A stretch of 64,000 bases of DNA, taken from the NCBI GenBank assembly GCA_044892505.1, contig CM097883.1, positions 292,454,001 to 292,518,000 of the forward strand, in the 5' to 3' direction. The DNA comes from Schmidtea nova (lineage: Eukaryota). Each line of letters begins with the position of its first letter. Within the stretch, counting starts at the first letter, position 1. The notes below the pieces were generated by a model, which saw only the letters and a list, made by a program, of their open reading frames with translations, was not told the DNA's origin and did not search any database. A program made the position numbers and the translations under genes. Shown here one piece after another: positions 12,945 through 63,900 of this stretch.

Positions 12945-13421
12945 ATGACTAAACACAGATTCACCATCAAAAAGCGACGAGAACGAGCCCGAATTAGCCC
13001 ATTAAAGCCGGCTCCATTTGAAATTTTGCAACAAATCCATCAAAAAATGTGGGCATGGCGCCGAGAGCTTGAAACCGCATGTCCATTTACAGTATGGGAC
13101 CATCCACGGCATCACGTATGGTACCCGGGATGCGCTAGCTGGCCAATCATTCCAGACGAGGAATTCGAATCATGGCACGCCGCCTGGTTCGTCCTGATGT
13201 TAGATAAACGGGGATTCCCGAGATGTGTAATCTATTGGGGGTTCATTCCAGCCTCCACATTCAAGGAATTGGGGTTCACTTTCCATACAGCAATACGACC
13301 CCTTCGGGAAGCCGAGAGGATCCGTTTTCAGCAGGCCTCGTCCAACTCCACTGGAATCAGCTCTCATCTACAAATCAGATCGATATTTTCGTACCGAGGG
13401 AAAGTGACCGAAGATGGATAG
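12945..13421 (+). CDS. LTR ORF1, 158 aa, Trp-rich, unknown function
   Basis: ATG ORF richer in GC than the flanks; identical protein in the 3' LTR; preceded by ttctag, followed by AATAAA. Confidence 0.65.
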   Translation: MTKHRFTIKKRRERARISPLKPAPFEILQQIHQKMWAWRRELETACPFTVWDHPRHHVWYPGCASWPIIPDEEFESWHAAWFVLMLDKRGFPRCVIYWGFIPASTFKELGFTFHTAIRPLREAERIRFQQASSNSTGISSHLQIRSIFSYRGKVTEDG

Positions 13422-13757
13422 TTGAATCAATGGCCACCTGTTCTAAATTAAATAAATGTTTTAGAGAAATCTGAAGTGTTTCATTTTGTTAATAGCGCTA
13501 TAATGTAGATGAGAAATTTATTAACCTCTAGTGTTGTAGATATTACAGTCAGTAGGACATTCTTTCACTAATGTAAAACAGTTGAGTAAGAATTTTGAGC
13601 CTCCAATCATTAAATAGAAAAATAATTTTTGTGTAAAGATTTAATACTTAAACACAGTAGTATGCATTTTTGCTCCTAAATCGTAAATAGTCACTTAATT
13701 AAAATGACCTTGTTGATAGGTTCTCCAGCGAATTTATCGTTATAATATTCAGACATC

Positions 13758-14342
13758 ATGCCGGTTTCAGAAAACTCGAAGAGAATCATGGGACAAATCC
13801 AAGATAGAAAGTTGAGGGACCAGCAGCGGCAGATCAAGCGACTCACGGTCGCCAATGATGAATTGAGAGCGAAGTGGTTCTCGCCCGAACAAATGAAGGA
13901 CCAATCGAAAAAACTCGAGCGAATGCAGGAAGCACTAACCGCAACTAAATTGGAACTAGACGCCGTCCAGAGAGAACTACGAAATTGCCTAAAGGCAGTA
14001 ACAAGAAGTTATATCGACTCCGAATTACGAGCGCTAATCCGGCCGATCATGGCTCAGCGCTGGACACAAAGTACTTATCAAGATGTCGCTTGCGGGACGG
14101 AAGATGGTATCATCATGGCCCCCACTCTTGTAACGGCCGATTTGCCTACTTTTCACAGTGATCCATCGAGAACAATGGCGTCAGCACCTGTCCTAAACCA
14201 ACAGCTTCGAAAACACCGAATGGGATCGCGACAGCGTCGTCGTCGCCGAGAATTTGCGAAGCGCCTGGACGAGCAAATCCACCACTTGAACTCCTTAACC
14301 GAAGCGGAGTTGATTCAGGAGATTAGTCTGGAGTTTGCGTAG
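13758..14342 (+). CDS. LTR ORF2, 194 aa, coiled coil plus Arg-rich motif
   Basis: Copy in the 3' LTR; diverged homologue at 61921-62406; RKHRMGSRQRRRRRE; AATAAA near 14385. Confidence 0.8.
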   Translation: MPVSENSKRIMGQIQDRKLRDQQRQIKRLTVANDELRAKWFSPEQMKDQSKKLERMQEALTATKLELDAVQRELRNCLKAVTRSYIDSELRALIRPIMAQRWTQSTYQDVACGTEDGIIMAPTLVTADLPTFHSDPSRTMASAPVLNQQLRKHRMGSRQRRRRREFAKRLDEQIHHLNSLTEAELIQEISLEFA

Positions 14343-14909
14343 GAAAACATCAGTGTCAGATAACAACCTGTTTTTTTTTATTTTAATAAAAGTGTTTTTT
14401 GTGTAAATTTTGTCTCTCATCGTGTGATTTCACTAAATAAAATAAATGACTCGATTAAATCATAGAAATAGAAAATCTCATCAGTATTTTTCTCGGACCG
14501 ACCGTTTCTACGTAGAGACTGATTAATTACCTTGTAGATCCGTTAAGGAAAGTGCAATTGGGGAAAGCGGGTGATAGATCATGAGGACAGGTAGTATAAA
14601 ATTCATGGGGAAACGAACATCCATAGAATGTAAATGCGTAAGACCTTCTATCGGCAGCAAGGACCCGAGGGAAGATAAATGGGGAGTAGTTTTGGCAACA
14701 AAGCTCACCTGCCCATCATTTTTCCACCACCGTATGCAGTACCAACTTGACTAGTAGGGAATAGGCAAGGGCATACGCGTGTAGTAGTCATGTTATGTAT
14801 GGTTATGGGCGTGGAATCCCTAGTATACGTACTCATCAATAGTCGTTCAATTTATGATTAACTATTTATTTGAATTACTTAAAACCCACCCATAATCCCA
14901 ACATAAATT

Positions 14910-14922
14910 TGGGGGCTCAGCC
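14910..14922 (+). promoter_or_regulatory. Primer-binding site, tRNA-Pro-like
   Basis: TGGGGGCTCAGCC 6 nt after the LTR; the first 9 nt match the canonical tRNA-Pro PBS TGGGGGCTCGTCC. Confidence 0.7.
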
Positions 14923-15250
14923 ATGATTCAACTTTGTTTTTATGCGGAAAAGGTGAACCCAATGACAACAAAGAGTTTTAAAATCAGAATTTTATGAGTA
15001 ACCGAAAGAGTAATCGAGACGAAAGCGAGTTGCGTAGAAATAGATAGTTATAGACAGAGAAGTAAAACAAATTGAGTAAATAAATACAACAACTCAATGA
15101 AATAGATAAAGTAAATAAATGCAATTATAAATAACAGGTAGGGACGACAATTTACCGAAACACGGGGGGAGGCTACAAACTGTCGAAAACGAAACACAGT
15201 ACTACTTTTCCAATAATATTAACACATTATTTAAATAAATTATCTAGGAA

Positions 15251-15712
15251 ATGGAGGAAAAACTGAAAGAAATCGAAGAATTTTTCAACACCGAGAACGA
15301 AACATTTGAGACAGTCTGCGAAAAAATAACCCGAATAAGAGCATCCGAATATGAGGAACCTACGACACAAACTGAGGAAACAACTGAGTTAATAAAAATC
15401 ATAGAGAAAGTAAATAAACTCGATATAAATACGCGATATAAATGGTACAAAGCACGATTAGAGGATGCCGAGTTGAATATCAGATGCCGACATATAGAAC
15501 AGCAGTTAAGCCTAACATATAACCGATGGATGTCGCAAGGGGTCGAGGCAGCAAAACAATATAAACAATGTTACATATGCGAAGACAGTGAAATCCAAAT
15601 AATGTTTCTACCATGCGGACATTTTCGATTCTGTAAAAACTGTGCGAATAAGTGTGATGAGTGCCCCATGTGCAATTTCTCTGTAGCTGATAAAATTGTA
15701 GTTTATTTATAA
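15251..15712 (+). CDS. 153-aa protein with C-terminal IAP/Mdm2-type RING-HC finger
   Basis: CYICEDSEIQIMFLPCGHFRFCKNCANKCDECPMC...KIVVYL at the extreme C-terminus, as in IAP RINGs; no BIR motif seen. Confidence 0.85.
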   Translation: MEEKLKEIEEFFNTENETFETVCEKITRIRASEYEEPTTQTEETTELIKIIEKVNKLDINTRYKWYKARLEDAELNIRCRHIEQQLSLTYNRWMSQGVEAAKQYKQCYICEDSEIQIMFLPCGHFRFCKNCANKCDECPMCNFSVADKIVVYL

Positions 15713-16185: not shown

Positions 16186-16459
16186 TTATTAGAATTTGTC
16201 CCTTGAAACAAAGGGTTATTAGAATTTGTCCCTTGAAACAAAGGGTTATCAGCGGTTTGTCCCTTGAAACAAAGGGTTATTAGAATTTGTCCCTTGAAAC
16301 AAAGGGTTATCAGCGGTTTGTCCCTTGAAACAAAGGGTTATTAGAATTTGTCCCTTGAAACAAAGGGTTATCAGCGGTTTGTCCCTTGAAACAAAGGGTT
16401 ATTAGAATTTGTCCCTTGAAACAAAGGGTTATCAGCGGGTTGTCCCTTGAAACAAAGGG
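16186..16459 (+). repeat. Tandem array: 9 x gtcccttgaaacaaaggg with two alternating linkers (61-bp higher-order unit)
   Basis: Cores at 16198, 16228, 16259, 16289, 16320, 16350, 16381, 16411, 16442; linkers ttattagaattt and ttatcagcggttt. Confidence 0.97.
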
Positions 16460-16461
16460 TT

Positions 16462-16619
16462 GAGGCCAAAGAGCCATATTGAATGACCTAGCTAGGCGTT
16501 ATTGAGAGATATGATTTAAGGCCAATAGAGCCATTTGAGATAATTGAGATATGAATTTAAGGCCATAAGAGCCATTTGAGATAATTGATATTAATTAGAG
16601 GCCAAAGGAGCCAATAGGG
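16462..16619 (+). repeat. Degenerate repeats, 4 x ggcca-N2/3-gagcca, ~40-55-bp spacing
   Basis: ggccaaagagcca, ggccaatagagccatttgagataattg, ggccataagagccatttgagataattg, ggccaaaggagcca. Confidence 0.8.
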
Positions 16620-16632
16620 ATATCCGGATATA

Positions 16633-16905
16633 TAGCAACGGAGGGAATATAGGCCCAGGGTTGCAATTAGTTAAAATTAAAGGAAGATAGTAACGGAGGG
16701 AATATAAGCCCAGGGTTACAATTGTTGAGTAGCAACGGAGGGAATATAGGCCCAGGGTTGCAATTATTAAAAATTAAAGGAAGATAGTAACGGAGGGAAT
16801 ATAGGCCCAGGGTTACAATCGTTCGAGTAGCAACGGAGGGAATATAGGCCCAGGGTTGCAAGTGATAAGAAATAACAACAGAGGGAATATAGGCCCAGAG
16901 TTGTG
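16633..16905 (+). repeat. Tandem array: 6 x aacggagggaatataggcccagggtt with alternating linkers
   Basis: Six near-identical cores visible. Confidence 0.93.
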
Positions 16906-33485: not shown

Positions 33486-34868
33486 ATGAATACAGAAGGA
33501 AAAGCCGAAGAGCGGATAATCGAAATTTTGAGAGCCGAGAACAGGAAATGGAGTCAGAGACTCACTTGTGTAAATTGTAAAAACATAATATTGAAACCAA
33601 GACAAACCCTATGCGGATGCAGAGTATGTACCAAATGCATACACGAGTTAAGTATGAAAAGACCACCAGAATGTCCAGAATGCAAAGAAGGACAAATAAA
33701 ATTCGAAGAAACCGGACCAGATAGAGCAACTCAGAGAGAAATCATGAACACGAAAACCGAATGTATAAATCAACCATGTATATGGCAAGGACAAATACGC
33801 GATCTCGAGAACCATCTGGAGAACTGCGAGGAGAAGAGAACTGAATGTAACAAATGCCAACAAAAAATAACTATAAAGAATAAAGAGCAGCACAAAGATG
33901 AATGTAAAGAAGAGGAAAGTCTATGCGAATATTGTGGAACTCGAGAAACGAGGAGAAAGATCGAAGAAGAACACCTGAATGTAAAAGAGGAGAAAGTATG
34001 TAGACAATATGTAGGAATATGTTCAAACGAATGCGAGATAACGGTAGAAGTAAAATTACAAGAACATTGGAAAGTGTGCACGGAGAAACCAAGGGAATGT
34101 CCTTATAACAAACAGGGATGTATGGAGAAAAGAACGCAACAAACCATGAAACAACATCTGGAGGAAGCATTGCTAAAGCATGCGGAAATGACAAACGAAG
34201 CAACAAAAGAAACCGAACAAACAATCAAAAAATTAGAAAGAGAAATAGAGTCACACAAGATAATGGTAAACCTACTGTTGGAAACCAGAGAGCAATTCGA
34301 ACTAACACGAGAAAAGATGGAGGAAAAGATAAAAGCTATCGAAGAATTGGCTAAAGGAATGAAAATCCAGTAAAACAAACTCACCCAGGATACCGAGGAA
34401 AAGCTACCAATCGCACCATATGTGTGGAAAGTGACAGATTTTAGAGACAAATTAACAGAGGCCAGAAATATGACGAAAACAGCAGTAATAAGCCCACCAT
34501 TTTATTTATGGAGAAACGGAGCTAAAGTGAGATTGAAGCTATACCCAAATGGAGACGGAAGAGGACGGGGAACACATGTGTCAATATTTTTCTCGCTATG
34601 TAAAGGAGAATACGACGACCTCGTAGAATGGCCCTTGAAAGTAGGAGTCATTATAAGAATCAGAAGTGTAACAAAACCGGTGGAAAAATTCTTTGAGACA
34701 GAGAAACATGCGAGCACGAGCGAGAAACCAACCACAGAATGTGGATTAGCAGCGGGAGAACCGATGTTTATAACGAAAGAAAGCCTATGGGAACGATTAT
34801 ATGCAGACACCCTATACATAGAAATGGAAAGGAATGAGAAAGCGGATAGAAAAGGATGGTTGACGTAA
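33486..34868 (+). CDS. Full-length TRAF-like protein (RING, TRAF zinc fingers, coiled coil, MATH); in-frame TAA at 34371-34373
   Basis: CVNC...PRQTLCGCRVCTKC...CPEC; PDRATQREI...C....C.WQG; WKVTDF...ISPPFY...KVRLKLYPNGDGRGRGTHVSIFFSLCKGEYDDLVEWP. Confidence 0.92.
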
Positions 34869-36697: not shown

Positions 36698-36886
36698 AAC
36701 TGATAAATTACATTCACTTTATGTATGATCCACGTACAATTAACAATAATATGACTTTATGCTTAAGTATAAAAACTTATCACCTTATGTGATTCTTTGT
36801 GTATATGTAAATTGACATTTATCTGTTTAATTTTTATGTATGATGATATAGGTGTAAATGTATGATTAATTGCGGGACGCAATTTT

Positions 36887-36901
36887 GGGGTCCCCGAGTG
36901 A
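36887..36901 (+). promoter_or_regulatory. Atypical polypurine-tract position
   Basis: ggggtccccgagtga directly precedes the TG of the 3' LTR; not purely purine. Confidence 0.45.
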
Positions 36902-38289
36902 TGTTGGGCCAGCCAAATAGAGGGAAAAGTGAAATAAAAGTGGAATAATTAAAACAAAAAGAGAAAAATAAGGTAAAAAGGGGAATATTAATTTGTTAAA
37001 AGAAAAGAGTAATATAGTTAAAATATAGATAAATTAAGAACAAACTATAAATAAAAATAAATGAATTTCTAGATATTAACGGGCCCAGGAGACATCTAAA
37101 AACAAATAAAATACAAATAATAATAATTAAAACCAAATAAAAGTACTTGTTATTGAATAATTGTTTTTGAAACCCAGACCTCCGAGGAAGAATACAATCT
37201 AAAAAAAATAAAAATTAATTAGAATCAAAAATAATAATCAAACCCACCATGAAATTGGCCAAACTTGATTGGTCAGTCTAGACCCGACTGATCAGTATAA
37301 ATACTGATCAGATTTTGAACATAATCAGATTGTTAAGATTGAAATTGTTAACCCCAGACTAAGTTGAGTTACATAGCATAACCAGACTGAGATCAACAGC
37401 TTGACAGAATTTTTCAACACTACAGATTAATCTTTGACCAAATTTTGTTACAAGTAGACAGACTGAAATCAATATTCAAAATTCGATAAGCGAAAAACAG
37501 CAATCTATAACCGGATCAATTAGGTACTTTGGTTTCATTTTCGTTTTATTATTTTTGTCATTCGATTCATGTTGATCATTTATATGTATTTATATATTAG
37601 AAATAAATTTTATTAACATAATATCGAATTTTTCATCATATTAATTTTGCGCCGATTGGGAGCTTTAGGTTCCCAAGGTGTCAATCCGTGGCGTGGTGCT
37701 CGAGGGCTCCACACACGGTAAAGTAATAAATAAATTACGATTTTTAGTAGTTGAAGAGATTTGCACATGGGACACCCAACGAATCCGGGGAATTATTTTC
37801 CGATCATTTTAGCTATAGAGGAGGCGATTTTCAGATAAAGTCTAACGATGTAGGATAGGAAAGAATTTTTTTTTTTTTTTTGACTGTGAGGAGGCACAAT
37901 TTTTCACCCTCACCACAGCACAGTCACTAAATAAACATCTAATCAACCGTAGAAAATTATGTCGACCGCATTTGATACGAAAGGGGCGTTTTTCCGGGTA
38001 AGCTAGGAGGTACATGATGTGAGAGAGTTTCCGTTTTGAGATACAAATGTTTCGAGGTCCACGCAGACAAATCACCAATTTTCGACTATATTATTGATCG
38101 TAAACCGATAAATCTAAGCAGACACGAGAGTAATGTATACCGTAACGAGCAACAGTTTTTTCTTGATTTCAGTTAAGGTCTAAGCCGAAGGCAAATAATA
38201 AAGGCATCACGATGAGAGATAACATCTACTATAATTAATTATTGATTTAAATTGTTAACTATTATAAAATTCAGCATCGTTCTAGTATC

Positions 38290-38766
38290 ATGACTAAACA
38301 CAGATTCACCATCAAAAAGCGACGAGAACGAGCCCGAATTAGCCCATTAAAGCCGGCTCCATTTGAAATTTTGCAACAAATCCATCAAAAAATGTGGGCA
38401 TGGCGCCGAGAGCTTGAAACCGCATGTCCATTTACAGTATGGGACCATCCACGGCATCACGTATGGTACCCGGGATGCGCTAGCTGGCCAATCATTCCAG
38501 ACGAGGAATTCGAATCATGGCACGCCGCCTGGTTCGTCCTGATGTTAGATAAACGGGGATTCCCGAGATGTGTAATCTATTGGGGGTTCATTCCAGCCTC
38601 CACATTCAAGGAATTGGGGTTCACTTTCCATACAGCAATACGACCCCTTCGGGAAGCCGAGAGGATCCGTTTTCAGCAGGCCTCGTCCAACTCCACTGGA
38701 ATCAGCTCTCATCTACAAATCAGATCGATATTTTCGTACCGAGGGAAAGTGACCGAAGATGGATAG
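38290..38766 (+). CDS. LTR ORF1 copy in the 3' LTR
   Basis: Protein identical to 12945-13421. Confidence 0.65.
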   Translation: MTKHRFTIKKRRERARISPLKPAPFEILQQIHQKMWAWRRELETACPFTVWDHPRHHVWYPGCASWPIIPDEEFESWHAAWFVLMLDKRGFPRCVIYWGFIPASTFKELGFTFHTAIRPLREAERIRFQQASSNSTGISSHLQIRSIFSYRGKVTEDG

Positions 38767-39102
38767 TTGAATCAATGGCCACCTGTTCTAAATTAAATAA
38801 ATGTTTTAGAGAAATCTGAAGTGTTTCATTTTGTTAATAGCGCTATAATGTAGATGAGAAATTTATTAACCTCTAGTGTTGTAGATATTACAGTCAGTAG
38901 GACATTCTTTCACTAATGTAAAACAGTTGAGTAAGAATTTTGAGCCTCCAATCATTAAATAGAAAAATAATTTTTGTGTAAAGATTTAATACTTAAACAC
39001 AGTAGTATGCATTTTTGCTCCTAAATCGTAAATAGTCACTTAATTAAAATGACCTTGTTGATAGGTTCTCCAGCGAATTTATCGTTATAATATTCAGACA
39101 TC

Positions 39103-39687
39103 ATGCCGGTTTCAGAAAACTCGAAGAGAATCATGGGACAAATCCAAGATAGAAAGTTGAGGGACCAGCAGCGGCAGATCAAGCGACTCACGGTCGCCAA
39201 TGATGAATTGAGAGCGAAGTGGTTCTCGCCCGAACAAATGAAGGACCAATCGAAAAAACTCGAGCGAATGCAGGAAGCACTGGCCGCAACTAAATTGGAA
39301 CTAGACGCCGTCCAGAGAGAACTACGAAATTGCCTAAAGGCAGTAACAAGAAGTTATATCGACTCCGAATTACGAGCGCTAATCCGGCTGATCACGGCTC
39401 AGCGCTGGACACAAAGTACTTATCAAGATGTCGCTTGCGGGACGGAAGATGGTATCATCATGGCCCCCACTCTTGTAACGCCCGATTTGCCTACTTTTCA
39501 CAGTGATCCATCGAGAACAATGGCGTCAGCACCTGTCCTAAACCAACAGCTTCGAAAACACCGAATGGGATCGCGACAGCGTCGTCGTCGCCGAGAATTT
39601 GCGAAGCGCCTGGACGAGCAAATCCACCACTTGAACTCCTTAACCGAAGCGGAGTTGATTCAGGAGATTAGTCTGGAGTTTGCGTAG
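39103..39687 (+). CDS. LTR ORF2 copy in the 3' LTR
   Basis: Four amino-acid differences from 13758-14342 (T>A, P>L, M>T, A>P). Confidence 0.8.
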   Translation: MPVSENSKRIMGQIQDRKLRDQQRQIKRLTVANDELRAKWFSPEQMKDQSKKLERMQEALAATKLELDAVQRELRNCLKAVTRSYIDSELRALIRLITAQRWTQSTYQDVACGTEDGIIMAPTLVTPDLPTFHSDPSRTMASAPVLNQQLRKHRMGSRQRRRRREFAKRLDEQIHHLNSLTEAELIQEISLEFA

Positions 39688-41015
39688 GAAAACATCAGTG
39701 TCAGATAACAACCTGTTTTTTTTTTATTTTAATAAAAGTGTTTTTTGTGTAAATTTTGTCTCTCATCGTGTGATTTCACTAAATAAAATAAATGACTCGA
39801 TTAAATCATAGAAATAGAAAATCTCATCAGTATTTTTCTCGGACCGACCGTTTCTACGTAGAGACTGATTAATTACCTTGTAGATCCGTTAAGGAAAGTG
39901 CAATTGGGGAAAGCGGGTGATAGATCATGAGGACAGGTAGTATAAAATTCATGGGGAAACGAACATCCATAGAATGTAAATGCGTAAGACCTTCTATCGG
40001 CAGCAAGGACCCGAGGGAAGATAAATGGGGAGTAGTTTTGGCAACAAAGCTCACCTGCCCATCATTTTTCCACCACTGTATGCAGTACCAACTTGACTAG
40101 TAGGGAATAGGCAAGGGCATACGCGTGTAGTAGTCATGTTATGTATGGTTATGGGCGTGGAATCCCTAGTATACGTACTCATCAATAGTCGTTCAATTTA
40201 TGATTAACTATTTATTTGAATTACTTAAAACCCACCCATAATCCCAACATAAATATATTTGATGGGTTCGCAGATGATGAATACAAAATGACCTCAGTTC
40301 CATAAAGCCAGCAATGAATGAAAATTAAAAACGTGATCAGTCTAGCATTTTTCTATGTTTCGTGTAATTAAAAATGTTTAATAATAAATTTTTTGATGTC
40401 TCAGCAAAAAATAAATGCTACTTAATAACTTTTGACAAGTATTATATCGCTTTTTACAATCTTATTTGTTTTTGCCTATTTATTTAATCAAGTTTTGCTT
40501 TGATTACTTTCTGATTTTCCTTTCAGTGTTGATGTACATAGCTTAAAACTGATTTAAGATAAAAAAACAAAATTTAAAATTTCAGAAGAATCTGGACGTG
40601 TAGGATCAAAATGGATTCCATTTTCTTAATCACCTCAAAAATCTGATCTAGAAAAATCTAATGCTGTTAATTGAATCTAAAAAAAGTTTTTTGTTGCCCA
40701 GTGTAATTTATTAAATATATAGGTTTTTTTTATTATCAAATATTAACTTAAAATATATATGTGATTGGAAATTTCAAATACTCGAATACTAACAAAAATT
40801 GAACTGAATTATTCCTTGCTAGAGACGATGCTAAAATTGAGTTTTCTTCAAGAATAATTTTTATTACTTCATGTTTCGACATTATTGATAAAAGATTCTA
40901 GAGTTAAAAATTAAAAATAATGGTTTTAAATTAATTAAATATACTTTAAAGATAATACATTTTTATATTATTTTTATTTTTGGGATAAAATCCGCCTAAT
41001 AAAATGAAAGAAACT

Positions 41016-43453: not shown

Positions 43454-43640
43454 NNNNNNNNNNNNNNNNNNNNNNNNNNNNNNNNNNNNNNNNNNNNNNN
43501 NNNNNNNNNNNNNNNNNNNNNNNNNNNNNNNNNNNNNNNNNNNNNNNNNNNNNNNNNNNNNNNNNNNNNNNNNNNNNNNNNNNNNNNNNNNNNNNNNNNN
43601 NNNNNNNNNNNNNNNNNNNNNNNNNNNNNNNNNNNNNNNN
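43454..43640. other. Assembly gap
   Basis: Run of N. Confidence 1.
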
Positions 43641-43764: not shown

Positions 43765-44367
43765 NNNNNNNNNNNNNNNNNNNNNNNNNNNNNNNNNNNN
43801 NNNNNNNNNNNNNNNNNNNNNNNNNNNNNNNNNNNNNNNNNNNNNNNNNNNNNNNNNNNNNNNNNNNNNNNNNNNNNNNNNNNNNNNNNNNNNNNNNNNN
43901 NNNNNNNNNNNNNNNNNNNNNNNNNNNNNNNNNNNNNNNNNNNNNNNNNNNNNNNNNNNNNNNNNNNNNNNNNNNNNNNNNNNNNNNNNNNNNNNNNNNN
44001 NNNNNNNNNNNNNNNNNNNNNNNNNNNNNNNNNNNNNNNNNNNNNNNNNNNNNNNNNNNNNNNNNNNNNNNNNNNNNNNNNNNNNNNNNNNNNNNNNNNN
44101 NNNNNNNNNNNNNNNNNNNNNNNNNNNNNNNNNNNNNNNNNNNNNNNNNNNNNNNNNNNNNNNNNNNNNNNNNNNNNNNNNNNNNNNNNNNNNNNNNNNN
44201 NNNNNNNNNNNNNNNNNNNNNNNNNNNNNNNNNNNNNNNNNNNNNNNNNNNNNNNNNNNNNNNNNNNNNNNNNNNNNNNNNNNNNNNNNNNNNNNNNNNN
44301 NNNNNNNNNNNNNNNNNNNNNNNNNNNNNNNNNNNNNNNNNNNNNNNNNNNNNNNNNNNNNNNNNNN
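43765..44367. other. Assembly gap
   Basis: Run of N. Confidence 1.
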
Positions 44368-49636: not shown

Positions 49637-50353
49637 AATTATTCTAAAAGATAAAATTATTAAAATATGATAATTAATTTGATTCAACTAATAATTGAAG
49701 TATTTACAAATTTGATTATAACAGTAAGATAAAAATATGAATTAACATTAAAAAGCAAAAGAATCAACAATTTATTAAATGAAAAACATTCAAATTCGAC
49801 AAAAACATGATCGTCATTAGAAATTGACAGAATGAACAAAAGCAAACAATTAAATCATTAAACAGACAAATTTTTCAGTTCGCAAATAATATAAAGTAAT
49901 TAATTTTAAATTGAAGATAAAATAAATACATATATTATTTATATCAAAATCATACTTATAACTCTCAGTGAGAATTTAATATCTATTATGCAGAAAAAAT
50001 CAGTAAAAAAACAATTTATTAAATAAATCAATTAAATATTTCAGTATTAACCCTTTACGCTCCAACAGTAAATCTTTCCTTGTTATTATCTGCATGGATT
50101 CCAATTATCAATTTCACGCACATCACATTGCCTGTCACCGCAAAGGCAATTATCATTACATTTGGTTTCATTAAATTGCTTTTTTGTAGTGTGTGTTTGA
50201 TTAACGCACACATTACATGTTATGTTTTAATTGGTTGTTTTTATTGGCCATATTTTCAGTGCATTTTTAAAATAAATTAATTTGTTTTTTAAATGTTAAT
50301 TATGTGTAATTATTAAGTTAATGAATGAATATTTTTAAGAATTGTTATAGGGA

Positions 50354-52954
50354 TGTTCAATAATTAACTTTGTTTTAATATTATCAAGTTGGCACTGTTA
50401 TGAAAAAATATATATTTTAATTTGATAAATTGTAAGTATGCATTATGAAGAGATTGTAACTGGCGACCACGTCGAAAAAATCGAGCTGATTCACGTGTCG
50501 ACAAGAAATCAACATAGGAAGATGATTATGAAATCTTAGCCTAAACAGGCAAAAGACATTTTGAATTTTAATGTCAGAAGATTCAACGGCCGAAGCACGA
50601 TAAAAGCAGAGAAATGGCTCAAGGATATTGAAGATTAGATGCTACTAAATGATCTAAATTTAGTAAGTATTTTTTATTTATTATTGTCTGAAGAGGCACC
50701 AATTCTCTGGAAAGAATTTAAGGACATGCATAAGATATTTGAAGGATTAATTTTCAAAGGAGAGGTTGTCTATTTTGATGATATTTTAATATATGCTGAA
50801 AATCAGGACACTCATGATAAACTTTTACTTGAAGTATTCACACGCATTAAAGATGCCGGTTTAAAGGTTATCCCGAGAAATGCGCGTTCCATAAAAACGT
50901 ATTAAATTTCACTGGTCATACAGTGAGTGAAAAGGGAATTCAAACAAACAAAAGAAAGATTTCAGAAATTGAAAATGCAACTGAACCGAAGAGTGTTACA
51001 GAATTGAGGTCATTCTTAGGTTTAGTTAATTATTATCGGCGGTTTATCAAGAATTATTCAATAATAGCTGCACCTTTGTATGTCGCAAAGACAGGAAATG
51101 ATAAAATTATTGTTTGGACTGAAGAACGTAGAAAAGGTTTTATCAATTTAAAGAAACTCTTGTGTGAAGCACCAATATTACAATTTCCAAGGGCAGGTTG
51201 ACTATTTATTCTTGATACGGATGCTAGTTTTGGAGCCATAGGTGCAGTTTTATCTCAGATTAAGGAAGATGGTACTGAGGGAGTGATAGCGTATGGTTCA
51301 AGACATTTGACAACACATGAAATGGGATATTGTGTTACTAGAAAAGAGTTGTTGGCACTTCACGAGTTTATTGTACATTTCAAGCAATATTTATATGGAA
51401 GAAAATTTGTAGCCAGAACGAATCACAGGGCATTAACGTTTGTGAACACGACAAAGAAAACAATAAGCCCGCAGTTTCAGACATGATGGCAAATTTATCT
51501 GAATACGATTTTGAGTAACAATATAGGAAGGGAGAAGAACATGGAAATGCAGATGGTATGTCTCGTTTAAATAATGCCATATGCTATCGTTGTCAGATGA
51601 AACACAAGGATGCTAAAGAGGCAAAATGTAGAACTCGGTACATTAATAGTCTGCAAGGAAGTTTTAATATTATGAAAATTATTAAAGAGAAGCAAAACGA
51701 AGACAAAATTATTTCAGAAATCCTATCACATCTTAATGGAACAATCAGTAGCATTATTTTCAAGTATCTAAATATATTACAGATACAAGATGACGTATTG
51801 ATGATTAACGCAGATGGAAAACTTGCAGTTGTAGTACATGACAAGTACGTAAAAACATTGGTAAATTATTTTTATATTGAACTGTGCCATCTGGGTATCA
51901 AGAAAACCTTATTTTATTTAAAAGACTTTTTCTTTTGGCCATCGATGAATCAGAGTATTACGGAATGTATTAATAAATGCAACATTTGTGCTAGTAGAAA
52001 TATTGATCAAGGAAGAATAAAGGAAATTTTATTGCCAAGAACAGGAGAACGGTTTTTAGAACATATAGTAGTGTACATTGCATATATGGAGACAAAGGCA
52101 AGTAAAAAATATACGATAGTGATAATAGATCGTTTGAGTAAATTGGTCAGCTTATCCGCAACAAGTACGCAGGATGAATCAACAATTTTGAATGTCATTT
52201 TAAATAATTGGATATATTGTTTTGGTAAACCAGAAAGCATTCTTACAGATAGAGGAAGAATTTTTGAAGGATGAATGTTTCGTGATTGGATGGAGAAATT
52301 TGGTATAAAACAAGAATTCAGTTCACTATATCAACATCAATCAAACGGTTTAGCAAAACGAATCATAAGAACAGTTCGGGACATGTTGGCAACATCATTG
52401 ACAGAGATTAGAACAGAGAATAATTGGTGCAGATTGTTACCAAAGATTGAATTTAGTTTGAATGCTATAATACAAAACTCAACAAATCTCTCACCTTTTG
52501 AAATTGTATATGGTCGAAGATTAATTTATATTCTAGATTAAGACATACAAAAAAGCAAAGAAGAAATTGTGGATAAAACAAAAACTAATCTAGAGAAAGC
52601 AGCTATAACAATGAAAAATAGAGATATAGAACACCGGGGTACTCGAGTATTCACGGTGGGACAGAAATTATTAGTTCGCTTGGAACCACATAGACGAAAG
52701 AAGGAGGAAATCCAATATGAAGGACCTTACAAAATTTTAAAATTCTTTTCACCAAGACAAGTTGAATTACAATTTCCAAACTCAATCAAATCAAGAAGAA
52801 TTGAATGGCTGAAGAGATGCAAAGAAAATGAAGAGTAGGAGAGTGATGTTCAATAATTAACTTTGTTTTAATATTATCAAGTTGGCACTGTTATAAAATA
52901 TATGTATATTTTCATTTGATAAATTATTAGTATGAATTATGAAGAGATTGTAAC
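50354..52954 (+). mobile_element. Degenerate, deleted Ty3/gypsy element with ~107-bp LTRs
   Basis: LTRs 50354-50460 and 52847-52954; PBS-like TGGCGACCAC; PPT aagagtaggagagtga; broken pol fragments YFDDILIY, DTDAS, HLGIKKT...CNIC, TDRG, GPY; no clear TSD. Confidence 0.88.
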
Positions 52955-54037
52955 TGTTATCTATTTTGAAAATAGATGAACTAATTGGTAAATTTATCAA
53001 TTAAAAATTAAAAATAACAATTCTTTTTTATAAATATTTTTTCGATTTTTTAAATTTTTTTAACATTAAATTTTCAATTAGAAAAAACTAAATTAACTTA
53101 GCTCATCTGATTATTCACAATGAGGAAGCTTACTAAGAGTTGACAGTTCAGAAACATTTTCCAAAACCATTTTTTGATATAAAAACTTTGTATTATTGAA
53201 AGAAATTCAGTGAAATTTTATAACAAATATTTTGAATTTTTCTAGAGATATTTAAACATTTAAAACTGTTTAAAAAAATTAAATTGTTTTTTGTTGTCGG
53301 ATGACTAACTGATTAAAATGAATTTTATACTGATATTTGATTATAGTTATAATATTTAACACGTTTCGTGCTTAGTTCTCACAAGTATCATGTAAGAAAT
53401 TCAGTCCTACCTGGACTTGAGGACTTTTTGACTAAAGACAAGAATATAACTACTCTACAACCAAGTTACACCAAATGTTACATTTTACACTTTACTTTGA
53501 TCAGTCAGTCATCCAAAAATCAAAAATGATTTGATTCTATTAAATTACTTGCCGACATGTAATGCCTTTACAAACTTTAACTGTGTTTACAGTTATGATG
53601 ATACAGGAATTATATGAAGTAATCATACTCCTAGTTAGGAAAATATCAAATGGATTTCTATTCGAGTTCTATTTGAGATTGAATCGAGTTACTTACAAGG
53701 TATTGACGTGTCGAACAAGCTTATTTCTGCTATCAGAAGCGTGTTCAATATCAATTTATAAACCTTATTCGTATTTAGGCTTTCTATTAAGTTTCTATTA
53801 GGTTTTCTAGTTATAAAAACTTCAGATAGATGAATTAAAAATTTTAAACCTTTGGAACAACTATTATGATCAACATTGAAAAAGGGAGTTGTTTTTCTTT
53901 TCACCTTTGTCTTTTTTCTTTCAAATTTCACTTAACGTCATTTATTTTTAGTCTATCAATGTTTTCAGATTATTACAAATTTTCGACACTCCCTTTTAAA
54001 GCAATCTGTTTAGTTTATTGAAAACACTATACCTTCA

Positions 54038-56646: not shown

Positions 56647-58603
56647 TACCTCTAATTAATTGCTTTTTTAAAAACAGTCATCCGTCAAATATTTTTTAAA
56701 TTAATTATTTAAATAATTTACATAACTATTACGATAGTATATAATTTTAAAATATAATTTAAAAACCTCGTGATGACTGTAATGAATAGTGAACGTCGAA
56801 TTTTGGTTTACGTGAAGGTCATTAAAATATGAATAACAATTTCTTTTATTTTCAGTAAATATTTAATAAAAATGTAGCTATTTTATTAAATGTTATGAAT
56901 TTTGTAATCTATAGCAACATATTGTATCTGCTTTTTAGTATCAATTTTTACTGTAGCAATTTTTACATAAATTAATTAAAATTCATAGTTTTGAAATTTA
57001 TAAAAATATATTATAGAAATATTCCGTTTATAACTTTTAATTTTTTATATTTTAAAATTTTTATATTTTTAATTTTTATATTGTATCTTAATCAAATCAT
57101 TTGTAAAGTTTCAATGGTTCTCTCAACTTAATGTCTTACATAATTAATATGTCAAATGCTGGTTCGAGAAAATTTTATTAAATAACAAAATTGTATAACA
57201 TAATTAAGATTTACCGTGATGATACAGAGATTTTATATAATTTATCAATACTGTGTGTCCTTTGATTTGTATCAATAGTAACAGTTACTTGAGCTAAGTC
57301 ATGTAACCTGTATGCTCAAAATTTAGCTTGTTAAGTTAAATTACAAACTAAAACCTCTTCTGACGAGAAGATTTTGTGGGTGAACTAAATGAAAAATACT
57401 GTTGGGTTGGCCCAGACGATAATAATGCTTCACAATGGACAAATAATAAAAGCAATTAAATAAATAACTCAAAAGCAAAGCAATAAACGGAAATAGAAAT
57501 CAAAAATATCAAAGAATTGAGAAAATAATAATAACTAAAATGAGAAGATTAAAACAAATGAAAACGGGAAAACCCCCGAATTAACATGAAACAAAAGGAA
57601 AAAGAATAAAAAATAGAATTAAATTAATTAATAGAATTAAATAAGAAATAATAAGAAAAAGAAAGGAAATAATTAATAAGAAATAGAAAACAATAAAAAT
57701 GTTAAAAAAATCGATTTAATTAAGCAATAAAAATCGAGAGCGATTTTGATTGGCTGCTTGAGCGCCAAAATTAGTATTAAAAAGGCTCTCAAGTCAGTAG
57801 CAAATCATCTTTTTAAATATATTTCTAACATCAACTCACTTTGTTATCATCATTTCCAATATTAATTTGAAATTTACGACAACACTCGGAACGACATCTT
57901 TTAAACAACATTGGAAATGATCACGAAAGATATTGTAAGTAATTTTTAATTCTCTAATAAAATTTTATTATGAAGTATTGTGTTCTTTTTAATTCTAAAT
58001 TTTTCAAGTTAAATTAATGACGGTGGTAAGTTGCCTTGAGAATCTAGATGGCCCTAAGGGTTGCCCGCTTTCCGGTAGTTTCGCCCTCCAGTTCGCGCCT
58101 CGAGTGTGGGATAGATGGAGAAACTTCTGAATGGCAAGATAATGAATCATAATAATGCATGGTAGCGAATGTCGGAATACTGACGTGCCGGTAGTTCTCC
58201 CTTTTCAATGAATTATTTTAAGAGTCAGTTCTAGAAATTAAGTTTATTAATACTAGCGATCCCCTACGTAACAACTTAATGTAGAGAATTTCAAAGATAA
58301 CTAACTTACCAATGTCAGTAGTTGAGGGAAATTATACGAATTAATCTTACACCATACCCCGATTTAATTTGAGCGTCTTCGTTTCTTTTTTTAAATTAAT
58401 GATAAAGTAGGAGAATCTAATAGTTTAATCCAAGTTTAATCCAACATTTTCAAACAGCTTCTGATATTCTTAATGCAATTCTTAGTCTTCAAAAAATAAT
58501 CAACCCAATAAATATTGAACTTTCACAAATTTACACACTCCAATGTAACAATATAAATGATTCTGCTTTCTTTATCTGTCATTGTTTTTCAAGAGATATA
58601 CCT

Positions 58604-58956
58604 TTGACCACACCTTCCATTCATGCCATAAAAAGAAACATTAATAAAAATATTGAAAATATTATCAATAAAAGAAAACCTAATAATGACATCACTAAAT
58701 ATAGCAATATTTACAATAATATAATTACACTAATTAAAAATCAATCGTGCACTCCTGATGAAGCACTTGATGAAATTAAAAGAATCTTTTTGCATTAAAT
58801 CTTAATAAAAAAAACTTCTAAGAAAAAAAATAAGATAAAAAAGACAATAATAAAAATCAGCTTATTTTTAATCTAAGACTAAACTTTGATAAATATCCTA
58901 AAAAAACTATTGAAAACATCTTTATTAATAAAAAAATAATAAACTCAACTCCTGAT

Positions 58957-58997
<41 letters not shown>

Positions 58998-60545
58998 GCA
59001 CTTTGCCACTACTAAAAAATATACTATTGATTTTAATTATAATTTAATCACAGCTAAATGTGAGGACACAAATTATACTCAGTGCACTATTACAAATAAA
59101 ATGTTAATTGATACTCTTAAAATCCTTGACAAACGCTCTGCTCCTGGTAATGACAAAATAACCTATAAAGTCTGGCAAAATACTCTAGGCCCAAAGCTTG
59201 ACTTCCTTACTGCCCTGTTTAATAACATACTTCTTAATAATATCAGTCCTTCATCTTGGAAAACTTTTAAAACTAAACTTATTCTGAAACCAGGTAAAGA
59301 GTTAACCTCACATGACATCTCTTCTTAGAGACCTCTGGCCATACTAGACACATCTTATCGCATCTTCTCCTCAATCTTAAATGAAAGACTTCTCACCTGG
59401 ATATCTGAAGGAAATCTTATCTCTCCTAACCAAAAAGCTATAGGAATGCACTGAGCATAATACTGTCCTCACATTAACGAAAGAATGGGCTATAAGAAAC
59501 AAAAAAGACCTAAATATTGTGTGGCTTGGTCTTGCTGACGCTTTTGGTAGCCTACCACATGACCTTATATGGAATACTCTTGATAAACATTGACTTCAAC
59601 CAAAAACCTTAGATCTTCTTAAAGAAATGTACTCAGATGTCTTCACTTACTATGACTGCGAGAAAAAACTTACTGATAACATACCAATAATTAATGGGGT
59701 CAAACAAGGATGCCCATTATCAATGACCAATTTTTGCCTCTCAATTGATTTCATCTTAAAGACAATTCTCCTTAAACATCCCCTAATAATAAATAACTTT
59801 AACCTTAGCATAATAGCCTATGCTGACGACTTTGTCCTAATATCTGACAACTATATAGGAATCTCTGAAATGCTTAATGACATCATTAATATGACAAATA
59901 TGGCCAACCTTAAATTTAAATCCTGTAAATGCGGCCACTTTCAACTAAACTGCAACAACTTTAATAAACCATTACTTATCTACGGTGAAATCATCCTTCT
60001 GTAAATGAAAATATTCTCTATAAATACCTTGGTGTTAACTTTGGCAACAAAGGCAAACACAACATCGATAGCACTCTTGAAACTACCCTTAATGATGCTA
60101 ATAATATCTTCACATCAGACTTACAACCTGTCCAAAAAATCACTGCCTTTAAAACCTTCATTCACTCTCGTCTTATATTCCACCTACGCAACTGTACTGT
60201 TTAGCACATGAACCTTGACTCTAGTGGGAACAAAAGCGTACAAGGAAGAGCCAAACAAATAGGGTTCGATCAAAAAATTAAAAAAATCTTTAAATAATCT
60301 CTTGGCGATATATTTTTGAATATTAACAATAATTTTTTTATACTCACATGTCCCTAGGAGGTCTTGACATAATCCCTAGTATAGATGAATATTTAATACA
60401 GAGCATTACCCACCTTTTCAGACTCCTAAACTTAAAACACACCAATATGAGAAATTTTATTACTAATGAAATGATAAATGCTTGTGATATAAGATTTAAT
60501 AATACTGAGAGAAACCTTGAAGAAAACCTAAAAGGTGAGGGTTAG
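58604..60545 (+). pseudogene. Non-LTR retrotransposon RT remnant, probably R2/R4/NeSL-like
   Basis: SAPGNDKITY, RPLAIL, LADAFGSLPH, GVKQGCPLS, AYADDFVL, GGLDI; many stops and frameshifts. Confidence 0.85.
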
Positions 60546-61061
60546 AATAGTCGAATATGGAAGCCAAAAAATAGTCGCCAAAGAAAAAAAGCTTTAATTG
60601 GTTAAAATCGTCGTCAATGTTGAAACCCTAAAAAATTGTCGAAACTGTAGTACAAAAAAATAGCCGACAATATTGAATCCTAAAAAAATAGTCGAAACAT
60701 TAGGGGCCAAAAATAATACAATTTTTTAGAAGGGTGTTAGATAACTGGGAGATAGCATTAATTTTTACTGTAATAAGTAGTAAATATTCTAAATGTATTT
60801 ATAATTAAATTACCGGGGGAAGAGGTTTTTTTGTCAAAATTTAGTGTTATGAACTCAGGCCGTTGTTTAAATGCCACACAAATAATAATTTTTCAATTAC
60901 AAATACAAAACTTGTATCTAAATATATTTCAATTTTTGTTATAATAATGTCTTTACAAACCCGTTAGTTATACATGGTACTTATTAAATTGGAAATGAAA
61001 CAAACAGACTAAAAGTAAAATAGACAAAAAATTATGCAAATAAATATTACAACTTTTATAG

Positions 61062-61246: not shown

Positions 61247-61723
61247 ATGCAAGCTGTTAACAATGATTCGATATATCCATTCACTCAAGACATTCACAGC
61301 GACTCGTTTTCATCAAATGACAACAATTATCAGTTCTACTCTAGTGGAGATTGTGTAGTCGATATTCAAAGAAGAAACAATTGCCAGTTCCGTAGATTGC
61401 AGAAATGTTTCGCTGCTGGAATGCGTAAAGAAGCCGTACAAACTGGAAGATGCTTGTCAACAACTGGATCAATATTAATATACTATCCAGACAAATCTGA
61501 AATGTATAACTCAAAAAATCTACAAATCAATACATTGGATCACAATCAATTAAACGATTATTCGCCAGCACCAGAAATCAATCAATACGGACTGTCATGG
61601 AGCTTACTCATTTCAACTCTTGTTATCATCGGTCAGGATTTCCGGTTGCCAAAGACCAACTTGTCAATTGGAGATCAATTTCTATTAATAAAATCTTATT
61701 TGCTTTTAACATTCCTACAATAG
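61247..61723 (+). pseudogene. Nuclear receptor fragment: second DBD zinc finger plus LBD signature
   Basis: DCVVDIQRRNNCQFRRLQKCFAAGMRKEAVQ (zinc-ligand Cys appears as Arg); LSIGDQFLLIKS resembles the LBD helix 4/5 signature; first finger not seen. Confidence 0.7.
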
Positions 61724-61920
61724 CTAATACAACTACACTATTTACTAACAACATTTAAAATTATCTAAATTAAATAAATTAACAAATATCAAACATAAGT
61801 TTTTTGTAAACATGAAACTTTTGGTGTTGGTAGCTTTCTTCAATTCAGTCACCGGGAAGGGTGATAAGTCGCGCTAACCCTTATAAACTAAGCATAAATA
61901 TGTAATATTTCCAGAAGTAA

Positions 61921-62406
61921 ATGCGTCGAGAGTATACAAAAAAAGATAGAATGCTGGATTTGGCAAGAGTAAAGGATCAAAGCGTCTCCTTATGAACCAT
62001 CGGAAACTTAAAGCTGGGGATATTAGATCAAGAGGACAGTTATTTTTCACCGGTCGAAATAAAGGCCGTGCAGGACAAATTATTAAGGACTAAGTGAACA
62101 TTGAAATATTGCCAATTAGAGTTCGAGGCCACGAGGATAGAGTTGAGAAACTGTCAGAAGATCATCACCCAAAACTTTGTAGCGAATGACTTGAAAGGGC
62201 TCATACGACCAATTACTCTGACGGGCTGGTACCCGGTGTCTAAAAATACAGATAATAACAGTGTTACTACGGGAGATGCCAGGAAGGGGACAAGGAAGCG
62301 CCGACGCACTCACGCTCAGCGTCGACGGTAAGCGAAACAGCGCTTAGAAGAAGAGCAAAACCTACTCTTGACTAACATTGGGTGGATCCAAAATGGAGAG
62401 AATTAA
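61921..62406 (+). pseudogene. Decayed homologue of LTR ORF2 (three in-frame stops, no frameshift); probable LTR fragment of a related giant element
   Basis: FSPVEIKAVQDKLLRTK*TLKYCQLEFEATRIELRNCQKIITQNFVANDLKGLIRPI aligns with FSPEQMKDQSKKLERMQEALTATKLELDAVQRELRNCLKAVTRSYIDSELRALIRPI; Arg-rich motif retained. Confidence 0.85.
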
Positions 62407-63288
62407 CTTGCATAAATTTTATCTAATGTGATGATCGATAATTAATCTTATGTATTAAATTAATGTAAATGTTGCATTTTGTTTTGACTTTATTATAACA
62501 TTAATAAATATAGTAGTATAATTTTGTATAGTGCTTTCCAACGAATAACTTAGATGGAATTTGGAGAGGTAATTAAGAGATAGCACCCGAAATGAAATAC
62601 GAGCGCAAGGGTGAGAATGGGAAGAAATATGACCTTCTGCCAGTCGTAAGAAACCCGTACGAGTGTCAATAGGGAGTAGTTAGGGGTCTAGCACAAGCCA
62701 TTTATCCCAAGAATGTATATTTTACATAATAATTATACCGTTTACCCCTGACTCACAAAATTTCGTAATACTTTATATGTTACGCAACATTACATACGAC
62801 TTTACATGTTATGGAATAATTACGTTATCATTACATAATACTTTAAGTATTACGTGGCAATAGTGAAATCATTAAGTAATAAGTTATGTATTACGTGCCC
62901 GTTAGGTAATAATTCATTTGTTACGTAATTTTTTAAAAGACCTTTGAAAATTTATGTAATTGCTTATTTGTTATTCAATTAATGATATAACACTGAAATT
63001 TATTAATTTTTATTTATTTTTTCATAATTTTTACAAAATATATAAAATAAAATAATTTTTTCAAAATCTTTTCCAAAACTTTCAAAAATGCTCAGATTTC
63101 AATATTTTTATACCAATCTACTGAGAATTCAATAGTGAACGAAAAAAGGTCAAAAAGTAAAAACATGAAAAATTGGTCTTCTCCGATCAATTTTACATGA
63201 AAAAACCTTACTTGGTTAAAAATGGTTAGAATTCAAGAAACTTTACATACAAATAATCATAATTTAACGCTCAACAAAAAGAGTGATA

Positions 63289-63900
63289 TTAACTAAATAA
63301 ACAACAAAAAACACAAAATATTTTAAAAAATAAAACTTTATTTATATAAATCTTCTCATCTTCGGTCAAATTGTTCATCATATTCAGCAGCATCTTCACG
63401 CACCCCCATAACCACATCAATTCCTTTATAATTTCCATAAGCCAGACTAACATTTTTCTCACCCAAAGTCTTTTGTCGTCAAGATTAGTCAAGGCAATCT
63501 TAGAAGATTTATTAGTAAAGAGTTGATGATTCTTACTAACAATTCTCGACTGATCAACAGAAACTATTGAATTATTATTGTAACAATCCAGGTAAGACTG
63601 ATGATTCAGTTTAGTATCCTTCAATGTTATACCCTTAGCCTTAATGCACTCTTCATCACCTAAAAGACTGTAACACTTTGGCCTAAGGAATACCCACTCA
63701 TCATACTTGAATCCTTTATTCTCGTCTTTGAATTTACTAATGACGGAATCTAGGTTTTTCGAGTACAAGGTATGACTTGGGTTATAATTCGAAATATCTA
63801 ATAACCTATCCCTAACCATAGCAGACAAAATAATATCCAACTTACAATTCTTAACTTCCAAGAAGAAAGAATCTGTATCACCAGCGACTATACCAATCTC
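63289..63900 (-). pseudogene. Maverick pPolB C-terminal fragment
   Basis: AGDTDSFFL, KFKDE, EWVFLRPKCYS, KAKGI, ALTNLDDKR. Confidence 0.88.

Follow-up and report, generated by a model that had tools for sequence, protein, structure and literature searches.

The locus at positions 61921 to 62406 is very probably (we put this at about 0.85) an old, inactivated copy of an accessory gene that a second Burro-like giant Ty3/gypsy family encoded in its LTR. On this identification, it descends from the same ancestral gene as ORF2, which is carried in both LTRs of a giant element in the same window, i.e., in the whole 64,000-nt stretch of DNA analyzed. The pattern of differences between the two genes supports purifying selection on the ORF2 protein while the two families diverged to synonymous saturation. 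Since the protein appears to have been kept under selection in two related families, it probably does a real job.

The giant element and the ORFs in its LTRs

The region from 11553 to 40249 is a Burro-like giant Ty3/gypsy element of 28.7 kb, in which the following features were annotated.

11553 to 14903, + strand: 5' LTR, 3351 nt
12945 to 13421, + strand: LTR ORF1, 158 aa, with a copy at 38290 to 38766
13758 to 14342, + strand: LTR ORF2, 194 aa, intact
14904 to 36901, + strand: internal region (Pfam); polyprotein in several pieces in this copy
36902 to 40249, + strand: 3' LTR, 99.5% identical to the 5' LTR
39103 to 39687, + strand: 3' LTR copy of ORF2, differing at four residues

Both LTRs are bounded by matching 7-nt inverted termini. 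The element is flanked by a 4-nt duplication (11549 to 11552 and 40250 to 40253), which is ambiguous because the same bases also follow the 5' LTR, and by DNA of 20 to 30% GC. Pfam domains in the internal region follow the order RING, gag, zinc knuckles, mononegavirus-type fusion glycoprotein, and protease, continuing with reverse transcriptase (RT), RNase H, integrase, ankyrin repeats, TRAF zinc fingers, and MATH. The RING ORF (15251 to 15712) is located upstream of gag, and the TRAF zinc-finger and MATH ORFs (33486 to 34868) lie downstream of pol. A Bcl-2-like motif before the glycoprotein is weak (E 0.084, below the cut-off). No Pfam match to BIR or dUTPase was obtained in the element at E 0.01; in place of BIR, only the RING finger was seen.

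Several other features were recorded in and around the element. A primer-binding-site-like stretch, which may resemble the 3' end of tRNA-Pro, is present at 14910 to 14922, 6 nt past the 5' LTR. Similar GGGACG...G-run motifs occur at 15140 to 15172 (about 240 nt past the 5' LTR) and at 36873 to 36898, immediately ahead of the 3' LTR; the second motif is no plain polypurine tract. The leader contains tandem arrays (16186 to 16902; periods 30/61, 41, and 43/97), and a 75-nt repeat, 97% identical, flanks the element away from its termini (11457 to 11530 and 40538 to 40612). Elsewhere in the window, a hAT transposase remnant with a C-terminal dimerisation domain was found at 9764 to 10762 (E 0.0008), together with two remnants in opposite orientation, 69% identical and without a Pfam match (1656 to 2031 and 63408 to 63790), the translation of which may resemble a Polinton-type DNA polymerase. 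Assembly gaps (N runs) span 2219 to 2384, 43454 to 43640, and 43765 to 44367; the ORFs listed at 2211 and 43762 overlap these gaps and were discarded as artefacts.

The ORF1 and ORF2 frames remain open in 2 and 1 of 20,000 mononucleotide shuffles, respectively. Both are located downstream of a CCAAT/TATA pair in the LTR, the putative promoter, with donor-like sites upstream (12368 and 12652), an acceptor-like site beside each ATG, and AATAAA at 13451 (after ORF1) and 14385 (after ORF2). Another TATA-like box, at 14595, has no conserved counterpart in the remnant described below; were it the true promoter, both LTR ORFs would belong to U3, as nef and sag do. The GC3 values of ORF2 (0.53), its homologue (0.50), and ORF1 (0.49) stand against 0.29 to 0.39 in all 13 internal ORFs, which are A-rich throughout (39 to 47% A). 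ORF2 has a pI of 9.8 and no transmembrane segment (peak 19-residue hydropathy, 0.84). A structural model from the single sequence (pTM 0.29; pLDDT 82 to 96 for aa 1 to 80) predicts helices at aa 5 to 40 and 43 to 109, a disordered linker, and a C-terminal helix at aa 143 to 179 that holds the Arg tract.

Database searches with ORF2 returned little. There was no Pfam match at the cut-off and no similarity to any host family, and none of the 147 candidates from a word-based search of 5.8 billion proteins, restricted to lengths of 106 to 340, reached E 0.1. Using phmmer against 1.84 billion representatives, one repetitive 501-aa match was retrieved (P0001; E 1.5e-4; 30% over 41 aa), and the best ESM Atlas match (0.89) is weak. 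In a viral fold library, none of 34 matches reached E 0.001 or better, and a lentiviral Rev fold at rank 8 (E 4.6, probability 0.08) was taken as noise. Comparison of ORF2 with the 120 pol matches by blastp gave none either. For ORF1, no Pfam family, no ESM Atlas match, and no tblastn match outside the LTRs in the 64-kb window were found, and Rfam had no match within this window. The blank ORF2 searches say little, because the element's own RT has no relative above 58% identity among the 120 matches listed (8000 candidates scored), none of which is an entry named Burro. The Burro-like family of this element, it appears, is simply not represented in the protein collections searched. ORFs inside Burro LTRs are not described in the portions of the literature searched, though the original Burro paper (Grohme 2018) or the Repbase entry may already annotate them; the text of section 7 of the review PMC6431247, figure aside, does not mention them.

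The ORF2 homologue and signs of selection on its protein

The earlier note had reported a stop-interrupted but unshifted frame homologous to LTR ORF2. This frame is indeed present as one + frame of 161 codons with no frameshift and with internal stops at 61993, 62095, and 62329.

61909 to 61914, + strand: splice-acceptor-like site of putative function, ending 6 nt 5' of the homologue ATG
61921 to 62406, + strand: pseudogenised ORF2 homologue, very probably of a second Burro-like family; 161 codons, ATG at 61921, stop at 62404 to 62406
62041 to 62229, + strand: conserved core matching ORF2 aa 40 to 102; heptad helix and Cys/Pro/Trp segment, 25 of 63 residues identical
62281 to 62355, + strand: Arg-rich tract with 7 Arg and 2 Lys among 15 residues, plus the beginning of the next helix; weak match to the ORF2 tract

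The stops are of two kinds, one of them falling in the conserved core. This makes it highly improbable that the locus represents a functional host gene domesticated from ORF2, a view that could otherwise draw on the unshifted 161 codons, the retained ATG and acceptor-like site, and the position of the third stop in a donor-like site.

The core is 39.7% identical to ORF2 over its 63 codons (tblastn, E 6e-11 to 8e-12 in three settings) and is the sole ORF2 match below E 0.4 outside both LTRs in the 64-kb window, with the runner-up at E 0.45. Shuffled and coiled-coil controls had been named beforehand as the hurdle for this alignment, and the match survives them: its local score of 132 was reached by none of 5000 plain, 5000 windowed, and 5000 heptad-preserving shuffles. 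The highest score among the six-frame tiles off the locus (1518 tiles in total) is 58, reversed ORF2 peaks at 62, and six other ORFs of the element, several of them charged and helical, score at most 49. Each half of the core is significant by itself (0 of 20,000 shuffles), including the post-heptad segment of aa 75 to 102, so the core match is not a coiled-coil artefact. A compositional artefact of two charged coiled coils could be suspected from the helical, charged nature of both proteins, the ease with which Arg tracts match, and the low DNA identity. This idea is refuted by the shuffle, tile, and post-heptad controls, and the codon-position pattern given below fits descent under selection, which leaves it next to no probability.

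The significant alignment is nevertheless shorter than the more than 100 residues originally claimed, being limited to the 63 codons of the core. The Arg-rich tract, which had been included in that alignment, does have a match together with the next helix, but this match is separate and weak (score 43, 11 of 5000 shuffles), with a gap of about 30 residues from the core. The N-terminal 39 residues of ORF2 gave no alignment to the homologue (score 21; 2918 of 5000 shuffles). As the earlier note had stated, little DNA identity is left: it amounts to 49% across the core, whole-window blastn self-comparison does not detect the locus, and alignment of the DNA around the two ATGs is at chance level (601, 754, and 853 of 1000 shuffles under three scorings). 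The TTCCAG reported 6 nt before the ATG is found at the homologue, whereas the LTR has TTCAG at 5 nt, another acceptor-like site and not the same hexamer.

The best-conserved part of ORF2 is the helix, rather than the Arg tract. ORF2 and the homologue alike have a heptad position at which 6 of 7 residues are hydrophobic. The Arg tracts contain 8 (ORF2) and 7 (homologue) Arg in 15 residues, and 8 in 15 are also reached in another ORF of the element (1 of 13). The basic tract of ORF2 is positioned about 50 residues past the helix, and the length of the linker differs between the two families.

Within the ungapped core, 35, 37, and 21 of 63 sites are identical at codon positions 1, 2, and 3, respectively (Fisher p 0.002). 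The Nei-Gojobori proportions are 0.93 for pS and 0.38 for pN, pS being no larger than pN in 0 of 2000 bootstraps, and one of seven four-fold sites is identical. As core dS is saturated, a dN/dS ratio is not computable for this pair. Neutral simulations at the same DNA identity gave a mean of 13 and a maximum of 23 identical residues in 10,000 trials, compared to 25 observed. These selection figures are somewhat biased, since the core was chosen by its protein match, with a wide margin remaining. Taken together, the codon-position pattern, the saturated synonymous sites, and the 0 of 10,000 simulations that reach 25 residues support the proposal that ORF2 has been under protein-level selection. 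The wider label of a conserved protein family draws on just two families, both from a single window.

Between the LTR copies of ORF2 there are four non-synonymous and one synonymous substitution (dN ~ dS), accounting for 5 of the 11 inter-LTR substitutions. Such equality between young LTR copies is expected from neutral change after insertion or from assembly error, and lends no support for selection. At the second locus, three stops in 161 codons correspond to about 11% neutral substitutions since the death of the copy (95% range, 2 to 33%), suggesting that the homologue decayed neutrally after insertion.

Probable LTR sequence around the homologue

The earlier note had interpreted the locus as an old LTR fragment of a second family. 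Collinear non-coding anchors that flank the ORF support this interpretation, as does a probable LTR 5' end not mentioned in the note.

57400 to 57745, + strand: probable 5' end of the second LTR; 7-nt terminus of the intact LTRs, then an A-skewed tract
57746 to 57781, + strand: probable promoter; inverted CCAAT box, then a TATA-like box
58400 to 60530, + strand: decayed non-LTR (LINE) reverse-transcriptase remnant; RVT_1, Pfam E 1e-10, boundaries by eye
61247 to 61723, + strand: open ORF of 158 aa encoding a degenerate second zinc finger of the HNF4-like nuclear-receptor type; Pfam E 7.8e-08
61764 to 61779, + strand: AATAAA-containing exact 16-mer in common with LTR 13442 to 13457, between ORF1 and ORF2
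62614 to 62681, + strand: conserved non-coding block of 67/68 nt, 66% identical to LTR 14625 to 14691
62704 to 62712, + strand: possible LTR right end; one mismatch in the terminal inverted repeat, 805 of 1000 shuffles as good

Upstream of the ORF, the AATAAA-containing 16-mer is the sole exact 16-mer common to the 3351-nt LTR and the 70,402 nt outside the element. It lies 157 nt 5' of the homologue ATG. The alignment of the surrounding intergenic region between LTR and remnant was equaled in 1 and 20 of 1000 shuffles under two scorings, and a wider comparison around the 16-mer in 12, 20, and 760 of 1000.

Downstream, an echo of the LTR 3' part had been proposed. The portion that stands is the 67/68-nt block, which is the best of 380 tiles (20 versus 13 for the next), while its shuffle support varies with the scoring (2, 19, and 545 of 1000). 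The ATCCCAA at the end of the proposed echo does not hold up: it is a lone 7-mer, equaled in 805 of 1000 shuffles, and is placed about 30 nt past the block, where the LTR has a spacing of about 210 nt. An RNA hairpin common to both versions of the block was rejected, as 0 of 9 pairs are compensatory and z is no better than -1.35. The candidate ends of the remnant show no target-site duplication, their flanks agreeing at 2 of 4 bases; for this reason, the locus is called an LTR remnant and solo-LTR status is not claimed.

At the 5' end, the A-skewed tract after 57400 has an AT skew of 0.48, matched by 1 of 1314 windows. The sequence TTGATTGG occurs at three + strand sites, namely, both LTRs and 57746, at a distance from the 7-nt terminus of 346 nt in the remnant versus 363 nt in the LTR, and the TATA-like box follows the CCAAT box after 27 nt versus 29 nt in the intact LTR. 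Three minus-strand sites of this octamer lack the terminus-plus-TATA arrangement, the chance of which was estimated post hoc at about 8e-6 per site. Compared base by base with the LTR, the 57400 piece is not significant under composition-preserving shuffles (44 and 120 of 500; 14 and 18 of 150). After subtraction of an insertion of about 2.3 kb, the ATG offset from the LTR terminus is about 2200 in the remnant versus 2205 in the intact LTR, and all anchors have the same strand and order as in the intact LTR.

The promoter piece and the ORF are separated by 4.5 kb of mixed repeats, comprising the LINE RT, a short-repeat element, AT-rich DNA, and the nuclear-receptor-like ORF. The LINE remnant includes a (TA)n tract at 58959 to 58991, and no insertion-site duplication was found around it. 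Repeated A-run/GTCG motifs at 60535 to 60740 resemble DNA-element subterminal repeats. The nuclear-receptor-like ORF occupies the position of ORF1 in the intact LTR, and ORF1 likewise has 158 aa; the shared 16-mer begins 41 nt past its stop and 21 nt past that of ORF1. Its best PDB match is HNF4-alpha, with two cysteines of that match missing. None of 237 longer candidates matched it, and a ligand-binding-domain signature suspected by eye had no PDB match at E 10. This ORF may be captured cargo that belongs to the remnant or a chance neighbor.

Overall, we consider it probable that a single LTR remnant extends from 57400 to about 62700 and was later invaded by the LINE and other repeats, about 2.3 kb in total. 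The alternative, in which the homology is real yet 61764 to 62700 and 57400 to 58300 are separate remnants, or the ORF is an internal gene of another element, is unlikely but of some weight. It draws on the mixed repeats between the pieces, the missing target-site duplication, the non-significant composition-aware alignments of the 5' piece, and the ORF1 remnant that tblastn did not find at the second locus. Against this alternative, the anchors share strand and order and their offsets agree once the insertion is removed, non-coding LTR anchors lie on either side of the ORF, and 280 six-frame pieces gave no match to internal-region proteins of the giant element near the locus.

Other candidate parts were rejected. 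Short matches pointing to a second LTR end at 60040 to 60450 fall within LINE coding sequence. A polypurine-tract-like match before 57400 was equaled in 28 to 137 of 1000 shuffles, and a primer-site match after 62712 in 63 to 707 of 1000. The gypsy remnant at 50756 to 52550 was dismissed as a partner internal region because its identity to the giant element is only 27 to 39%; it belongs to an unrelated gypsy pol remnant with RNase H and integrase (50349 to 52956), near which 115-nt direct repeats occur at 50349 and 52842.

Candidate roles of ORF2 and comparison with known systems

By analogy, the coiled coil and Arg tract tentatively suggest that ORF2 is a Rev/Tat-like regulator of the element's own RNA, which we rank above a host-directed effector and, below that, a DNA transactivator. 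Because both ORFs are located behind the putative promoter and an acceptor-like site and are each followed by AATAAA, any LTR copy could give rise to short spliced or early-terminated mRNAs for ORF1 and ORF2 from the CCAAT/TATA promoter. The conserved helix would then mediate oligomerisation of ORF2, which, once in the nucleus, would use the Arg tract to bind RNA of the element and thereby permit expression of the 22-kb A-rich internal transcript through LTR poly(A) read-through, splicing control, or export. What the data show directly is the homology, the selection signature, the stops, the motif positions, the codon bias, and the helical model, whereas transcription, splicing, translation, oligomerisation, and RNA binding of ORF2 are steps that we infer. 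The early/late contrast in GC3 between LTR and internal ORFs is reminiscent of lentiviral Rev dependence and favors a regulator of the element's own RNA. None of six export-signal patterns matches ORF2, and the 67/68-nt block shows no shared RNA structure. ORF2 may act like Rev or Tat, but it is not assigned to the Rev-like proteins.

A host-directed accessory effector, whose helix binds a host partner and whose Arg tract is only a nuclear/nucleolar localisation signal, is an unlikely but serious candidate. Conservation centered on the helix and the Cys/Pro/Trp segment would suit this role, as would the lack of an export-signal pattern and the richness of the element in apoptosis and ubiquitin-pathway domains, e.g., RING, TRAF/MATH, and Bcl-2-like (PMC6431247). 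However, the Arg tract is kept in both families, and ORF2 resembles no host family in Pfam.

Less likely still is a DNA-binding LTR transactivator, similar to foamy-virus Tas or a basic zipper, for which the 67/68-nt block would be a DNA site or enhancer. The block is conserved in sequence and not in RNA structure, and ORF2 is both basic and helical, in agreement with such a protein. In contrast, the basic tract is far past the helix, beyond a disordered linker of family-specific length, which is unlike the layout of a basic zipper, and the fold library gave no match.

A broader version of the regulator reading holds that Burro-type elements are 'complex' Ty3/gypsy proviruses in which the LTR is a two-gene expression cassette, every copy, orphans included, supplying its products in trans. 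As a whole, we regard this as improbable. Its regulator part alone, a conserved Rev/Tat-like ORF2 gating the A-rich full-length RNA, is conceivable though unlikely; the captured-receptor part, in which an exchangeable first slot held a zinc-finger-damaged HNF4-like fragment in the second family, is doubtful. Both parts jointly are less likely than either.

Burro elements are abundant and are transcribed upon loss of PIWI control (PMC8532177), and they have been proposed to be integrated proviruses (PMC6431247). Control of the 22-kb A-rich transcript is not addressed in the portions of the Burro literature surveyed. With evidence of protein-level selection, a hitherto anonymous LTR ORF becomes a specific candidate for knockdown and long-read RNA studies, and ORF2 can serve as a protein probe for diverged Burro families invisible to blastn. 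If the Rev/Tat-like reading is true, regulation in the style of complex retroviruses would extend to Ty3/gypsy elements; for now, we see a solid yet modest addition to a known element class.

That class, Burro/GYPSM1, comprises giant Ty3/gypsy elements of dugesiid planarians exceeding 30 kb (PMC6431247). The present element shares with it a size of about 30 kb, multi-kb LTRs (3.35 kb here), AT-rich host DNA, a gag with zinc knuckles, a fusion glycoprotein placed between this gag and the protease, ankyrin repeats following integrase, and MATH/TRAF; the Bcl-2-like motif of the class may also have a weak counterpart here (PMC6431247). The Burro order of gag, env-like fusion protein, protease, RT, RNase H, and integrase is likewise that of the Pfam matches in 11553 to 40249. 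Together with the 20 to 30% GC of the flanks, this architecture points to a probable dugesiid host. At 28.7 kb, the element falls slightly below the >30 kb described, and its TRAF and MATH domains are encoded by ORFs of their own past pol, with a RING ORF upstream of gag; the Burro MATH is found inside the polyprotein in S. mediterranea and upstream in D. tigrina (PMC6431247). Flatworm gag-env-pol elements have also been described, apparently without reference to Burro (PMC13524379).

In Drosophila MDG1-group elements, two small accessory ORFs, sORF1 and sORF2, precede gag and are separated by a poly(A) site; their low dN/dS across families indicates purifying selection (10.1101/2025.03.14.642691). 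Similarly, ORF1 and ORF2 are small, precede gag, and have a putative poly(A) site (AATAAA) between them. Unlike sORF2, ORF2 is located within the LTR and has no transmembrane segment; its 194 aa and hydropathy of at most 0.84, versus a single TM helix in about 60 to 110 aa, led us to reject an sORF2/FAST-like fusogen (10.1101/2025.03.14.642691).

The Rev-like proteins Rev, Rex, Rem, and Rec of complex retroviruses combine a coiled coil with an arginine-rich motif (PMC5568270). ORF2 is comparable in being small and basic, with an Arg-rich motif and an acceptor-like site 5' of its ATG; its predicted helical region may serve oligomerisation. No export-signal pattern follows its Arg tract, no similarity in sequence or fold was found, and the 67/68-nt conserved block revealed no structured response element. 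ORF2 also differs in being encoded wholly within the LTR of a Ty3/gypsy element rather than a retrovirus.

HIV nef and MMTV sag are LTR-encoded genes situated in U3, ahead of the promoter, their expression coming from the 3' LTR. As with nef and sag, the protein genes studied here are duplicated in both LTRs. Unlike nef and sag, ORF1 and ORF2 lie downstream of the conserved CCAAT/TATA pair that probably serves as their promoter.
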